NCBI GenBank assembly: GCA_050952645.1
Contig: JBMNLI010000010.1
Span: forward strand, 64,001 to 128,000
From: Bdellovibrionota bacterium
GTDB taxonomy: Bacteria; Bdellovibrionota_C; UBA2361; CAKMMH01
Direction of reading: 5' to 3'
Length of the DNA stretch: 64,000 nt
Within the stretch, counting starts at the first letter, position 1. Every line of letters starts with the position of its first letter. The translations under genes and the position numbers were made by a program. A model generated the notes under the pieces. The model had not been told where the DNA came from, searched no databases, and saw only the letters and a list, made by a program, of their open reading frames with translations. Shown here piece by piece: positions 31,386 to 52,992 of this stretch.

Positions 31386-31608
31386 GACTCTTCACGTTTT
31401 AAGTGGGTTAAAGACCTTAAAATTAGTATTACTCACCCCACACGCCCAAAAGAAAATTGACTTTCAAGAAATTTGCATCAAATAAATTAACTTTAAATAT
31501 AGCTGTAATTTTTTTTTGAAACTATAACTAGTTTGATAAAAAAGTCAATTTTCTTTTAAGCTAACCTAAAAAAACAATTTTTCTAACCCACCTAAAACGT
31601 GAAGAACC
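31386..31608. mobile_element. MITE family copy A
   Basis: TIRs GACTCTTCACGTTTTAAGTGGGTT / AACCCACCTAAAACGTGAAGAACC, internal IR AAAAGAAAATTGACTTT...AAAGTCAATTTTCTTTT, and ATTTTTT on both flanks. Confidence 0.85.
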
Positions 31609-40117: not shown

Positions 40118-40518
40118 GGTTCTTCACGTTTTAGGTGGGTTAGCTTAAAAGAAAATTGGCTTTTATAGAAAACTATCTATAGTTTAATGAAAAATTACAA
40201 CTATATTTAAAGTAATTTATTTTATGCAAATTTCTTTAAAGTCAATTTTCTTTTGGGCTTCGTGGGGTGAGTGATGATGCTAATTTTTTGGTCTAAAACC
40301 TACCTTAAAACATGAAGAACAAAAATTGTTTTAGGTGGGTTAGCTTAAAAGAAAATTGGCTTTTATAGAAAACTATCTATAGTTTAATGAAAAATTACAA
40401 CTATATTTAAAGTAATTTATTTTATGCAAATTTCTTTAAAGTCAATTTCTTTTGGGCTTCGTGGGGAGTGATGATGCTAATTTTTTGGTCTAAAACCTAC
40501 CTTAAAACGTGAAGAACA
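40118..40518. mobile_element. MITE family tandem dimer (copies B and C)
   Basis: Two near-identical ~190-200-bp units (40118-40320 and 40328-40518) with outer TIRs and an 8-bp TSD ATCTTTTA (40110-40117 and 40519-40526). Confidence 0.9.
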
Positions 40519-43429: not shown

Positions 43430-44152
43430 ATGGAAAATAAAAGCAAGCAAGACCAAAATTTTTATTCGCATTTAAAGGAGCTTAGAAAGAGAGCTTTTAT
43501 ATCGCTTAGCTTTATTGTCCTATTTGCGATTATTATATACGCCTTTTCTCCAGACATTATCAAACTTATCGATAAGCAATTTAAAAGTTATTTTCTAGAC
43601 ACGGATTTAATTGGCAAAAGCCCTATCGATGCTTTTTTAGTAAGATTAAAAATTTCTGCATTCTTAGGCTTTTTACTTTCTCTTCCTATAATTTTATTTG
43701 AAATATGGGAATTTATAAAACCAGGATTAATGAAGAAAGAAAAAAAATATTTTTTCTTATTTTTAACTATTGGAAGCTTTCTAGGAATAGGGGGCGCTCT
43801 TTTTTGTCATTTTTTAATAGTTCCTATCGCACTTAAATTTTTTTATAGTCAGTATAAACTACTTTCTTTAAAACCGATTATCCACTTTAACGATTATATC
43901 ACACTTATCATAAAGTTTGATGCTACTTTTGCTCTGATTTTCGAGCTTCCAATTATTCTAGTAATTTTAGCAAAATTAGATTTAGTAGATAGTACATTTT
44001 TAAAAAAATATTCTCGTCATGCAATACTAGTTATTTTTACACTAGCTGCTATTTTAACTCCGCCAGATGTGATAACTCAATTGCTAATGGCCATTCCGCT
44101 AGTAGTTTTATATTTTTTAAGCATCTACTTAGTTAAGATTTTAGTAAAGTAG
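43430..44152 (+). CDS. tatC: Twin-arginine translocase TatC
   Basis: Motifs HLKELRKR, FIKPGL, FELP and AAILTPPDVITQ. Confidence 0.96.
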   Translation: MENKSKQDQNFYSHLKELRKRAFISLSFIVLFAIIIYAFSPDIIKLIDKQFKSYFLDTDLIGKSPIDAFLVRLKISAFLGFLLSLPIILFEIWEFIKPGLMKKEKKYFFLFLTIGSFLGIGGALFCHFLIVPIALKFFYSQYKLLSLKPIIHFNDYITLIIKFDATFALIFELPIILVILAKLDLVDSTFLKKYSRHAILVIFTLAAILTPPDVITQLLMAIPLVVLYFLSIYLVKILVK

Positions 44153-44166
44153 TGAGCTTTGCCTTA

Positions 44167-44197
44167 CCTTAAATTAACATCTTAATTGACATTTAAG
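44167..44197 (+). repeat. 31-bp direct repeat, left copy (right copy at 48582-48612)
   Basis: CCTTAAATTAACATCTTAATTGACATTTAAG is identical on both sides of the nested element. Confidence 0.92.
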
Positions 44198-44217
44198 TCT
44201 TCACATTTTAAGTTAGC

Positions 44218-44629
44218 ATTATATCTCACGCCACGGAGCCTAAAAGAAAATCTCCGCAACCTAAAAAGCTAGCTCCAATTTTCTTTTAAGCTAACAAAAA
44301 ACAATTCATTAACATGATATATCTCACACCACGGAGCCTAAAAGAAAATCTCCGCAAACTAAAAAGCTAGCTCCAATTTTCTTTTAAGCTAACAAAAAAC
44401 AATTCATTAACATTATATATCTCACACCACGGAGCCTAAAAGAAAATCTCCGCAACCTAAAGAGCTAGCTCCAATTTTCTTTTAAGCTAACAAAAAACAA
44501 TTCATTAACATTATATATCTCACACCACGAAGCCTAAAAGAAAATCTCCGCAACCTAAAAAGCTAGCTCCAATTTTCTTTTAAGCTAACAAAAAACAATT
44601 CATTAACATGATATATCTCACACCACGGA
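44218..44629 (+). repeat. 98-bp tandem array, left part (4 units plus the start of the 5th)
   Basis: CCACG(G/A)AG anchors at 44231, 44329, 44427 and 44525, with the interrupted unit at 44623; units differ by only 1-2 substitutions. Confidence 0.95.
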
Positions 44630-45006
44630 ATAGGGTAGAGCGAGGGCTATACCCTCTCCCTCCCGTCTCACCGTACGTACGGGTCTCGTATACGGCGCTC
44701 CATTAATATAATATCAAGTAATACTCAGGTAATACGTCAAAGGGTCGATTAAACCAATTCGTTCCTTTGTTTTACGCCCCAATATTTTAGGGCTTAATGC
44801 ATAATTCACTACGTACCACGAACTGCGTCTATACCAGCCGAGTCTGCTGTTAGCAACCTTATAGATTTCTTCATTTCTAAAATTGCAACCAAGCATTCGG
44901 TTCAATTTCTTAAGATTTAGATCCTTAACTTTTCAAAAAAGTTCACCTAAACAAATAATCAATTAAAATAAATAAGAAATAATCGTTAAATTATGCATTT
45001 TTTTAC

Positions 45007-45035
45007 TTGCATCTGTGTATTTACTATGCTATACT
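45007..45035 (+). promoter_or_regulatory. Sigma70-type transposase promoter
   Basis: TTGCAT-17 bp-TATACT with an extended TG; AAGGAGG RBS before the ATG at 45068. Confidence 0.6.
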
Positions 45036-45067
45036 TTTAGTGCAACCGTTAACCTAAAGGAGGTTTT

Positions 45068-46756
45068 ATGAATTACAATCGAACAGTTCCATTACCAGAG
45101 CAAAGAAATAAAATAATTATAAGAGAAAAAGGGGAAGCAAAATATGTGCTTTTTGAATACGATCGCACTTATAATAAAGAGAAACAGTATACTAATCCAA
45201 AGCGTAGCGTTATTGGAAAATTAGTTGATGGTAGAGATGATATTATGTACCCTAATGACAATTATAGTAATTATTTTCCAGATGCCCCTATGCCCGAGAA
45301 ATTTTCAGACGCTTCACGCAGTTGTTGTCTTCGTATAGGTCCCCACTTGGTGATTGAAAAAGTAGCAAATGAATTTAATTTGCCTTTTTTACTAAAAAAA
45401 CATTTTGGTGAACGTAGTGAACTTATACTTGATTTAGCGAGTTATTTTATTGTAAATGAAGAGAATGTCAGTCAGTATTATCCAGACTACGCCTTTTCTC
45501 ATCCACTCTTTACAAAAGGTATGCGCATCTATAGTGATTCTACCATAAGTCGTTTTCTTTCTTCTGTTAGCAAAGAGCAGATAATTAACTTTCTTGACGA
45601 TTGGAACAAGGGAAAAGATCGCAATCAAATGGTTTACGTTTCATATGATTCGACTAATAAGAACTGTCAAGCAGGTGATGTTGAATTAGTAGAGTTTGGT
45701 AAAGCGAAAGACGAAAAAGGATTCCCAGTATTTAATTTATCCATTGCCTTTGATCAAACGAATAGAGTTCCGTTATTTTACGAAGAGTATCCTGGTTCTA
45801 TTACAGACGTTTCTCAATTTACTCATATGGCAGATAAGGTTATAGAGTATGGATATAAAAAGATAGGATTTATTTTAGACCGTGGTTATTTTAGTAAATA
45901 TAATATTCAATATATGGATAATAGTGGTTTTTCTTTTTTATTGATGGTAAAAGGGTGTAAGGCTTTAGTTTCTAAATTAGTAGAAGAAAACAGGAATACA
46001 TTTGAGTCTAAAAGAGACTGTAGTATTCGCTTATACAAGGTATATGGCACTACAGTGAAATCAAAATTATATGATGATGATAGTAAGGAGCGTTATTTTC
46101 ATGTTTATTTTAGTGCGGAAAAGCAAGCATTTGAGAGGGAGCAACTAGAAATTAAATTAGAGGAGTTTGAACAATTTTTAAAAAACCATATTGGCAAAGA
46201 TACAAAGTTTGGACAAACGTATAAGCAATTTTTTGATTTAAGTTATGACAATCAAGGAAAGTTAAGAAAAGTAGAAGAGAGAGCAGATGAAATTCAAAAG
46301 GCTCTTAATTTATGTGGGTATTTTTGTCTTGTTAGTTCGGAAGAAATGAGTGCTAAAGAAGCTATAATACTTTACAAGGGTAGAGACGCAACTGAGAAAC
46401 TTTTTGCTATTGATAAGACTTTTTTAGGCTCAAAAAGTATGAGAGTTCATTCATCTCAGGCAGTATCTGCTAAAATTTTTATAGAGTTTATAGCACTTAT
46501 AATTCGCAATCGCATTTATATTCTACTTAATGAAGAACTTTCTAAGCTAACAAAAAAGCCAAACTATATGAATGTTCCTGCCGCATTAAAAGAACTTGAA
46601 AAAATTGAAATGGTAAGAGGGAGTAAGGATTTATATCAGCTGAGCTATGCAGTAAGCAAAAGACAAAAAACTATATTAAATGCGTTTGATATAGATGCTG
46701 ATAAGGTAAGATTAAAAGCTGCTCAAATAAATAAAAAATTACAAAAAAAATTTTAG
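45068..46756 (+). CDS. DDE transposase (IS1634/IS4 superfamily)
   Basis: YDST, ILDRGYFS and YKGRDATEKLF (YREK motif); intact 562 aa. Confidence 0.92.
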   Translation: MNYNRTVPLPEQRNKIIIREKGEAKYVLFEYDRTYNKEKQYTNPKRSVIGKLVDGRDDIMYPNDNYSNYFPDAPMPEKFSDASRSCCLRIGPHLVIEKVANEFNLPFLLKKHFGERSELILDLASYFIVNEENVSQYYPDYAFSHPLFTKGMRIYSDSTISRFLSSVSKEQIINFLDDWNKGKDRNQMVYVSYDSTNKNCQAGDVELVEFGKAKDEKGFPVFNLSIAFDQTNRVPLFYEEYPGSITDVSQFTHMADKVIEYGYKKIGFILDRGYFSKYNIQYMDNSGFSFLLMVKGCKALVSKLVEENRNTFESKRDCSIRLYKVYGTTVKSKLYDDDSKERYFHVYFSAEKQAFEREQLEIKLEEFEQFLKNHIGKDTKFGQTYKQFFDLSYDNQGKLRKVEERADEIQKALNLCGYFCLVSSEEMSAKEAIILYKGRDATEKLFAIDKTFLGSKSMRVHSSQAVSAKIFIEFIALIIRNRIYILLNEELSKLTKKPNYMNVPAALKELEKIEMVRGSKDLYQLSYAVSKRQKTILNAFDIDADKVRLKAAQINKKLQKKF

Positions 46757-48386
46757 GTGAACTTTTTTGCAAAGTTAAGGTAGATAGATTCGTCTCGGCA
46801 ATTTCCACTGTTTAAGTATTATAACCCTCACTTTGTGTCTAAGCCATTGACCATATTTATCTATAAAAGTCTTAAGAGTTCCTATCTTATAATAGTTTAT
46901 CCAACCTTTAATTAACCAGCTTAGCTGTTGAAATGTCGAACCTAACGTTCGTGCCATTGCCTTCCGTCTACAAAGAATTTCTCTAGTTTTATCATAGAGT
47001 TTTCGTTTGCGATCTTCAGCAGGTTTACATTTCCAAGTTTTATACCCACTCTTCCAGTAGGTAAAGCCTAAGAAAGTGCTTTCCGTCGGCCTAGAGATTT
47101 TACTCTTACTTGAATTAATTTTAAGTCGTAGCTTACGCTCCAACCAACTCGCAACGGACTTCATTACTCTATTAGCAGCCTTTTCACTTCTAACAAATAT
47201 ATTACAGTCATCGGCATATCTAACAAACTTAAGTCCTCTTGCTTCCAGTTCCTTGTCGAGCTTATCAAGGTATATGTTAGATAATACTGGGGATAATGGA
47301 CCTCCTTGCGGAACTCCTTTCTCACTTACAGTAAACAATCCATCTTCCATTATACCAGCTCTTAAGAACTGTCTTATCAATCGTAGTGTCTTCGCATCTT
47401 TGATGCGTTCCCTGATTATCGAAATTAATTTGTCGTGATTAACAGTATCAAAATATTTCTCTATGTCTAGGTCTATAACCCAATCATAGCCTCTTTTCAA
47501 GTACTCAAGAGTTCTATATACTGCTAGATGGCAATTCCTTCTAGGTCTAAAGCCATAGCTACTATTACTAAAATACTTTTCGTATCCGCGTGCTAGTATT
47601 TGCGCTACCGCTTGTTGAATTACCCTATCTACTACTGTAGGTATTCCTAAAGGTCTCATCTTACCATTAGCTTTAGGTATATACACTCTCTTAACTGGAC
47701 TCGGCTTATAATTCCCTTCACGTATCTGAGATTTTATCTCTTCTCTGTGAACGGCAAAATAGTCTTCAAGCTCATCTACTGGCATATCATCTACACCAGA
47801 TGCACCTTTATTTCGCTTAACAGCCTTTATAGCCTCATCTATATTTTTGTCTGATATAATTAGTTCAATCAATTCCACCTGTTGCTCCTCCCTCTGTTTG
47901 TAAAGCTACTAGAAAACACCCCCTCTATCTTCTGCCCCCACAGGTTACGTTCCTGTTTGTTAGGCATATCTTCAATTTCGGACTCTTCTAGCCTTGCTTA
48001 CAGTGATTCACAATATATTAACGTTCAACCCTTCCTTGAGTGGTGTCTCAAGTACTATGGTATCAACTGACTTCCAGATATAAGCTTTATATCGCACGTG
48101 CATAGCACGCTATCTGGACCTCCCGGGGTAAGGCATAGTTCTTTCACCAGACAACCTCCAGATTTACTCGTTTGGTTTTACGTTTGTCTTTAGGGCTTCG
48201 GTTTGTAGCGCAACCTCACCCACCATTTAGCCTTGTATCTGGTTTCTGTTCGTAGGCTCCTTGGTTTTGATCCGCCACTTCCTTCACTCTAACATTACTG
48301 CTTCGAGCTTGTGGCATCACTACACTTGGTGACAACTACCCGTGACGGGACTTTCACCCGCTAGAACTATGTCGTGCCCGGCACAC

Positions 48387-48553
48387 GCCTAAAAGAAAAT
48401 CTCCGCAACCTAAAAAGCTAGCTCCAATTTTCTTTTAAGCTAACAAAAAACAATTCATTAACATGATATATCTCACACCACGGAGCCTAAAAGAAAATCT
48501 CCGCAACCTAAAAAGCTAGCTCCAATTTTCTTTTAAGCTAACAAAAAACAATT
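48387..48553 (+). repeat. 98-bp tandem array, right part
   Basis: The array resumes with GCCTAAAAG at 48387 and again at 48485. Confidence 0.95.
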
Positions 48554-48600
48554 TTTCTTGACCTACTTAAAACGTGAAGAACCTTAAATTAACATCTTAA

Positions 48601-48629
48601 TTGACATTTAAGGTAAATTTAGCTAATAT
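48601..48629 (+). promoter_or_regulatory. Probable tRNA-His promoter
   Basis: TTGACA-17 bp-TAATAT just upstream of the tRNA. Confidence 0.65.
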
Positions 48630-48645: not shown

Positions 48646-48722
48646 GGTGGATATAGCTCAGTTGGTAGAGCCCCGGATTGTGGTTCCGGTTGTCGTGGGT
48701 TCAAGTCCCACTATCCACCCCA
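48646..48722 (+). tRNA. tRNA-His (GUG)
   Basis: Cloverleaf with G-1, anticodon arm CCGGA-TTGTGGT-TCCGG, GTTCAAG and encoded CCA. Confidence 0.96.
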
Positions 48723-52883: not shown

Positions 52884-52992
52884 CGTTCTTCTCGTTTTAA
52901 GGTGGGTTTTAGACCTCAAAATTAGTATCACTCCCCCACGAAGCCCCCAAAAAAAAATAATTTTCACAACCTTACTTAAAACGTGAAGCACT
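52884..52992. mobile_element. Short MITE copy D
   Basis: Ends GTTCTTCTCGTTTTAAGGTGGGTT...ACTTAAAACGTGAAGCAC, with TSD AAAACTTT on both sides. Confidence 0.85.

Follow-up and report, generated by a model that had tools for sequence, protein, structure and literature searches.

A class C group II intron in a Bdellovibrionota genome is found mainly at hairpins of an ISL3-type MITE family

Ten near-identical copies of a class C (IIC) group II intron are present in the genome of a Bdellovibrionota bacterium (1.95 Mb in 17 contigs, 94% complete, 31% G+C), and nine of these abut a hairpin contributed by a family of MITEs with ISL3-type ends. We conclude that this is a real, well-supported and mechanistically ordinary case of IIC hairpin homing, albeit on an unusual substrate, and that no new mechanism is needed; recognition is of the usual IIC kind, and the predominance of the MITE probably reflects supply, as it provides most of the hairpins that fit the EBS1 of the intron. 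The suggestion of an initial sequence-only reading, that the partnership of MITE and intron forms an undescribed class, is too strong, since the IIC literature already places these introns after terminators 'or other inverted repeats' (PMC1702495; this and the other papers given by PMC number are cited from excerpts).

The intron and its target hairpin in the window

The window, a stretch of 64,000 nucleotides, contains one copy of the intron, on the minus strand at 44630-48386; discounting an inserted IS element, it is 1894 nt long, with 5' GTGTG and 3' CCCTAT ends. Rfam matches domain I and domains V-VI, and the details of these domains, together with a 4-nt EBS1 and a reverse transcriptase nearest to IIC maturases, bear out the class C assignment made from the letters alone. 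Domain V (44667-44700, minus strand) has CGC in place of the AGC triad (GAG-CGC-CGUAUACG...) and a distal stem of 3 bp, and the RF02001 alignment locates an AGGAA bulge in domain I at 48276-48287 (GUGAAGGAAG); both the CGC triad and the bulge are given for IIC introns (PMC1702495). Domain I is short and matches RF02001, as would be expected if the EBS2 subdomain is lacking, as it is in class C, and domain VI (44630-44665, minus strand) has a bulged A near the 3' end. EBS1 (GCUA; 48206-48209, minus strand) occupies the loop of the domain Id3 stem (48200-48215) and, with 2.5-4 pairs to IBS1 at the intron's own sites and covariation over 38 loci, it conforms to the 3-4 bp of class C.

The first 366 codons of the reverse transcriptase/maturase ORF (46781-47878, minus strand; YADD motif, RVT_1 and GIIM) are severed from the remainder (44714-44917, minus strand) by an IS1634-family element (44923-46780, plus strand), which encodes a 562-aa transposase at 45068-46756 and is flanked by a 5-bp duplication, TAGAT. 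Pfam returned RVT_1 and GIIM alone for this truncated maturase, with no endonuclease domain found. The 433-aa protein of an intact intron copy passes TIGR04416, and the nearest solved chains in the PDB, 7UIM (E 5e-107) and the GsI-IIC reverse transcriptase 6AR1 (E 1e-99), are both IIC maturases. The IS1634 element itself has nine near-identical copies in the genome, with A/T-rich duplications of 5-6 bp, and only that in the window lies inside an intron, giving a three-level nesting of IS element, intron and MITE array.

The 5' exon consists of GCCTAAAAGAAAAT-N26-ATTTTCTTTTAAGC at 48387-48440 (minus strand), a hairpin with a 14-pair stem and a 26-nt loop. Folded as minus-strand DNA, it forms 14 pairs, including one G-T, at -11.1 kcal/mol (z -5.1; none of 200 shuffles was as stable); the plus-strand fold is weaker (-6.7 kcal/mol, z -2.5). 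The GTGTG of the intron begins at 48386, immediately after the hairpin arm, and the earlier observation that the 3' arm of a 13/14-bp stem adjoins it is thus upheld, with the junction at 48387/48386. The target of the Eubacterium rectale intron, which is read largely by shape, has a stem of ~12 bp that a short spacer separates from a 4-nt IBS1 and the IBS3 base (PMC10190682). From this geometry, we infer that the working stem at the present site is the inner 10 bp, AAAAGAAAAT/ATTTTCTTTT, and that it is followed by IBS1, namely AGGC (intron strand; 48387-48390), the outer four bases of the arm, which would have to open for pairing with EBS1. At the other end, CCCTAT finishes at 44630 and is followed by a T (44629, minus strand), the likely IBS3.

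The same hairpin motif recurs at 44238, 44336, 44434, 44532 and 48485, with a spacing of 98 bp once the intron is removed. Four 98-bp units, each with an empty hairpin, lie on the 3' side of the intron (44238-44629), and two lie on its 5' side (48387-48568), the hairpin of the second (48485-48538) also being empty; joining the exons regenerates an exact 98-bp unit. As removal of the intron leaves six head-to-tail units, the insertion was clean. The 98-bp unit is MITE-derived, as the sequence-only reading had supposed, but it is a tandemly amplified internal module rather than the element itself. The module stands between an intact ISL3-type terminal inverted repeat core, GGTTCTTCACGTTTT (48569-48583, minus strand), and a decayed one at the opposite end (44196-44212, plus strand).

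The array is flanked not by the 8-bp duplication of the family but by a 31-bp direct repeat (44167-44197 and 48582-48612, plus strand), a stretch that belongs to a hairpin and whose right copy includes TTGACA, the -35-like box of a promoter-like site that precedes tRNA-His. The neighbouring genes, tatC (43430-44152, plus strand) on the left and tRNA-His (48647-48719, plus strand) on the right, are ~140 bp apart in the congener G001, where neither MITE nor intron was found. A CRISPR reading of the array was rejected, as the units have no spacers. Neither the 98-bp unit nor the long MITE form gave a terminator-like call, and the MITE hairpin does not display the combination of G+C-rich stem, short loop and U run that defines an intrinsic terminator. 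Likewise, the RYYYAAC/GTTRRRY boxes of attC sites are absent from the unit and from all 36 long modules, and the best match in a search of the 94% complete genome for an integron integrase scored 22.8 bits against a cut-off of 265.

The MITE family and the ten intron copies

That the repeat belongs to a genuine MITE family, as had been supposed, is established by its terminal inverted repeats, its target duplications and an ISL3 element with the same ends. The terminal-repeat matrix gave 215 matches in the genome, compared with five in a shuffled genome; 63 terminal-repeat pairs could be formed, delimiting 50 elements shorter than 600 bp and devoid of transposase, 21 of which have an 8-bp duplication with at most one mismatch (5% in cross-pair controls). 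The ISL3 partner (C10:339480-341339; 1860 bp) has a transposase that scores over the cut-off and a perfect 8-bp duplication. Overall, the family comprises ~152 masked loci, which occupy 6.2% of intergenic DNA (1.3% of the whole genome), with subfamilies of ~104, 136-160, 222 and 270 bp and some tandem arrays; the inner inverted repeat AAAAGAAAAT...ATTTTCTTTT is carried by the 136-160 and 222 bp forms. Long MITE and maturase domain were both sought in the three closest genomes (80-92% complete) and not found, barring two short weak matches.

In the full-length ISL3 element (L001), a ribosome-binding site and ATG lead into a frame that stops after 32 codons, and the transposase frame (423 residues) opens within a run of A that immediately precedes this stop. 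The likely start codon is thus out of frame, through a programmed frameshift, an assembly error or inactivation, and present activity of the element, along with the renewable landing pad of the sequence-only reading, is putative. Three further loci of the family in the window are empty: a long form (31386-31608), a tandem pair of long forms (40118-40518) and a short form (52884-52992). Additionally, the long MITE loop contains a sigma-70-like site (TTGGCT/TTGACT, 16 nt, TATAGT; 40156-40183 and 40356-40383 in the window), which in 33 of 36 modules is oriented towards one of the two feet; 30% of the shuffles of one module score equally, and the site is therefore a lead. It is conceivable, albeit unlikely, that such a promoter-like element transcribes copies at that foot and so lifts the silence that limits terminator-bound IIC introns.

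Among the ten introns, 19 of 1906 alignment columns vary, mostly through single-base indels. Five reading frames are intact, four are shortened by indels, which may be assembly errors, and that in the window is broken by the IS element. Six copies are inserted at RGGC-T on one strand of the MITE inner repeat and three at AAGC-T on the other, whereas the tenth follows an unrelated 8-bp hairpin, at TAGC-A; the exon thus ends in GGGC, AGGC, AAGC or TAGC. A predicted stem (-4.0 to -11.1 kcal/mol) ends 4-6 nt before the junction at all ten sites, the gap being 4 nt at the nine MITE sites and 6 nt at the tenth. Alignment of the 5' exons of all copies, as the sequence-only reading had advised, therefore supports its view of the MITE hairpin as the common site; the outcome that it had named as a refutation, copies after ordinary terminators with no enrichment for the MITE, did not appear. 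All ten copies lie outside ORF calls. Eight are on the G-rich strand and two on the C-rich (p 0.055), and a bias of class C introns to that replication-strand direction has been reported (PMC8919778).

The eight long host MITEs are 7-49 bases apart (one truncated host inflates its own distances), and for six of them the nearest MITE is empty rather than filled. Moreover, the hosts begin to diverge only a few bases away from the junction, whereas their introns remain almost identical, and the window copy resides in a different MITE subfamily, with a common exon of 14 nt only. From the divergence of the hosts and the near-identity of the introns, we conclude that the insertions are independent events, younger than the MITE copies themselves. 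In four of four public runs, from four studies, the intron contig reaches 48400, 14 nt into the MITE arm; contigs of this kind give the main path only, and two of the runs may be of the source strain. [quoted passage not shown]

Some individual copies deserve mention. The sole informative SNP, at intron nt 526 (window 47861), is synonymous: exactly the three copies inserted at AAGC-T have G and the remaining seven have A, a split expected by chance once in 120 (post hoc), and G is also found in runs X4 and X5. The pattern may reflect history or, alternatively, a polishing artefact among copies with common flanks. The copy at G000:C7:31508-33401 has MITE on its 5' side only, its 3' flank being an unrelated T-rich repeat, which suggests that the junction underwent deletion or rearrangement. 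The ratio of contig depth between intron and flanks in runs X1, X3, X4 and X5 is approximately ten-fold in two, four-fold in one and below 1 in another; depth is no copy number, and this spread is a rough hint of differing copy loads between populations.

EBS1, the supply of sites and alternative explanations

Comparison with related introns identifies EBS1. The 41 closest of the 160 loci returned for the protein (57-77% identity) were taken with their upstream DNA, and 37 were kept, as the 5' end was not found in three and was mis-picked in one; many come from two genomes. In all 37, a predicted hairpin (median stem 12 bp, loops of 3-30 nt) ends 3-8 nt before the intron; these short hairpins are terminator-like, most of them having T-rich tails, and by eye none contains the MITE arm. 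The bases of the Id3 loop form a mean of 3.2 out of 4 pairs with the exon end over 30 distinct EBS1/IBS1 combinations, compared with 1.63 in shuffles, none of 10000 of which scored as high. It is this covariation that defines EBS1 as GCUA here. The tetranucleotide is present in all ten copies and pairs with RGC at all ten sites; in the window, it pairs with AGGC, which supplies the contact between EBS1 and the exon end that the earlier reading had sought. Covariation does not place EBS3, since nine of the ten copies and most relatives have T at +1.

EBS1 is highly variable within the clade, with 21 different 4-mers among 38 loci, and GCUA occurs in none of the 37 relatives. In Allobaculum stercoricanis (L022-L025, L031, L034), six copies of one class C intron have three EBS1 4-mers that track their exon ends, in what appears from the sequences to be retargeting within a genome. 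The best protein matches are from Erysipelotrichaceae and Clostridia, the closest relative being 77% identical, and a search of 40 host relatives for intron DNA found none apart from one weak 107-nt match; on these grounds, the intron presumably arrived horizontally.

Preference has to be separated from supply. Sites were counted in intergenic DNA, using a hairpin definition of our own; units within arrays are not independent, and the non-MITE sites include some family relatives that escaped masking. Energy thresholds were used because an initial enrichment based on stem length alone was inflated by A/T-only stems. MITEs hold 746 of the 8561 intergenic RGC-T/A junctions and nine of the ten insertions (p 3e-9). 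Where such junctions also have a stable hairpin, the MITE share is 48, 58, 67 and 71% at thresholds of -4, -5, -6 and -8 kcal/mol, with p values for the MITE excess of 0.008, 0.08, 0.26 and 0.66, respectively. At -4 kcal/mol with +1 T or A, 9 of 119 MITE sites are filled, compared with 1 of 127 others (p 0.008), which counts against pure supply. When T is required after RGC, 112 of the 170 intergenic hairpin sites at -4 kcal/mol belong to the MITE, as do 74 of the 93 at -6 kcal/mol, and the probability that at least nine of ten insertions fall in it under that supply is 0.10 and 0.38, respectively. With the MITE accounting for about 50-80% of the fitting intergenic hairpin sites, supply explains most of the bias; dedicated recognition of the MITE is not needed, although a modest preference, or selection, may contribute.

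Among the 101 strict MITE sites, of which nine are filled, 52 are in arrays (three filled) and 49 are single (six filled; p 0.31). The proposal that array amplification multiplies targets therefore holds insofar as arrays double the number of sites, but they are not struck more often. Within this set, preferences for long loops (p 0.15), for one foot (p 0.32) and for strand (7 of 50 versus 2 of 51 filled, p 0.09) are not significant, and none of 11 short MITE forms, which have the same junction and no hairpin, is filled, a sample too small to be informative. The loops at eight of the nine MITE sites, at ~74-84 nt, are far longer than the 3-30 nt of the 37 relatives, and hairpin formation in vivo is hence a prediction. 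The claim that the intron targets a MITE hairpin rather than a terminator or attC site thus stands for the site itself, which is neither; as a statement of specificity it has to be tempered, given the one copy after an ordinary hairpin, the 37 relatives after terminator-like ones and the weakness of the excess over supply.

A plausible sequence of events can be outlined. Both feet of the MITE inverted repeat have a terminal RRGC with T as the next base, and both are used; each offers a 10-17 bp stem, then IBS1 directly, then T, which is canonical IIC target geometry. Moreover, as the inverted repeat extends through IBS1, both strands present one and the same site. An intron of recent origin from a terminator-targeting, Firmicutes-type lineage would bind, as a ribonucleoprotein, the A/T-rich stem while this folds in DNA exposed as a single strand by the replication fork; once the four foot bases had opened and paired with EBS1, the intron would reverse-splice before the T and be copied by its own reverse transcriptase from a fork primer. 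Few non-MITE hairpins end in RGC-T in a genome of 31% G+C, and the MITE would consequently become the main landing ground. The intergenic position of MITEs likely lets insertions persist, and purifying selection could have purged those at real terminators.

It is conceivable, albeit unlikely, that class C introns retune their hypervariable EBS1 to the dominant dispersed hairpin repeat of the host, and that GCUA was here selected to reach both feet of the ISL3 MITE while largely avoiding terminators, making the intron a specialist parasite. The rapid change of EBS1 in the clade, even within the one Allobaculum genome, makes such retuning possible; the absence of GCUA from the relatives and the lack of any EBS1 change among the 12 intron substitutions listed for a variant in one public run are in keeping with it, as is the rank of the triplet GCU among all 64, which is first (-6 kcal/mol) or second (-4 kcal/mol) for MITE-supplied sites, but ninth or 13th for all sites. 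That rank is partly circular, however, because any intron that occupies the MITE is bound to fit it, and an intron that possessed GCUA by chance and spread because it fitted would give an equal pattern. Moreover, no ancestor with another EBS1 was found in the host lineage, the closest relative being 77% identical in protein, and one copy sits at a non-MITE hairpin. If retuning were true, a terminator-seeking intron would have turned MITE specialist and, were further cases to join it, the targets of IIC introns would include a third class in addition to terminators and attC sites.

Two further explanations invoke the fate or the multiplication of insertions. That the intron enters every fitting hairpin, including those of terminators and genes, and that selection clears nearly all insertions outside MITEs, would accord with the position of all ten copies outside ORF calls and with refuge in mobile elements, by which group II introns have been described to survive (PMC7306698). 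We regard it as quite improbable: the supply counts are already intergenic-only, near-identical copies leave little time for purging, and class C relatives persist in many hosts after terminator-like hairpins, at up to nine copies per genome, so that such sites are evidently tolerated. The remaining explanation, that one or two insertions were multiplied as cargo by ISL3 transposition or by recombination of the whole composite, derives some support from several composites that have both terminal repeats and an 8-bp duplication with at most one mismatch, and from the single SNP that sets the three copies at one foot apart from the other seven. It is very improbable and already largely refuted by the distances between hosts that carry almost identical introns, by the proximity of most long hosts to empty elements, and by the different subfamily and 14-nt common exon of the window copy. 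Ordinary hairpin recognition with the MITE as main supplier thus remains our preferred account, and it makes the adaptation of EBS1 to the repeat landscape of a host a testable proposition.

Comparison with known systems

The ~100 near-identical hairpin sites, nine filled, on both strands, with stems of 10-17 bp and loops of 26-84 nt, constitute a natural panel suited to testing the DNA target needs of the IIC ribonucleoprotein, and they illustrate a route to multiplication for a hairpin-seeking intron whose A+T-rich host is poor in fitting terminators. The many GsI-IIC sites reportedly listed by Mohr 2018 could already include insertions in repeats. Our literature search, conducted largely on titles and abstract openings and with most subscription papers outside reach, returned no paper on a class C intron that uses a MITE. 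Group II introns are described as hiding in mobile elements (PMC7306698, PMC3522654), the reverse nesting, of a MITE inside a group I intron, is on record (PMC4853749), and the excerpts of PMC8643678 and PMC12584367 restate hairpin targeting only.

The MITE family itself has a counterpart in Microcystis aeruginosa, where an ISL3-mobilized MITE has ends that start with GGCTCTTC, 8-nt direct repeats and a matching ISL3 element (PMC11448079); the present family differs in having several subfamilies and tandem arrays, and the excerpt of that paper mentions no intron target.

The intron most closely resembles the terminator-type IIC introns (B.h.I1, GsI-IIC and that of Eubacterium rectale, 7UIM), with which it shares a close reverse transcriptase with no endonuclease domain found, the CGC triad, the AGGAA bulge, a 4-nt EBS1, a target composed of stem, short gap, IBS1 and then T (PMC10190682, PMC1702495), and a lean to one replication strand. 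In contrast to the targets of that group, the present hairpin belongs to a mobile repeat, does not have a G+C-rich stem with a U run, has loops of 26-84 nt and includes IBS1 within a longer inverted repeat; additionally, EBS1 is led by G/C here, but is mostly A/U-rich in the relatives. A smaller fraction of IIC introns occupies attC sites, and these (the S.ma.I2 type) offer a parallel in which the site used by a class C intron, in place of a terminator, is a dispersed inverted repeat that is imperfect and has a long central part of variable sequence (PMC4424553). The present repeat has neither attC boxes nor a genomic integrase over the cut-off, and is instead bounded by transposon ends and 8-bp duplications.

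Group II introns that target IS elements, such as E.c.I4, enter transposase genes through longer sequence pairing. The present intron is like E.c.I4 in multiplying inside another repeated mobile element (PMC3522654), but its target is a non-coding hairpin read by shape and 4-5 bases. Moreover, the occupancy seen here, nine of ~101 sites, is similar to the 4-11% given for two class C introns (PMC3522654).
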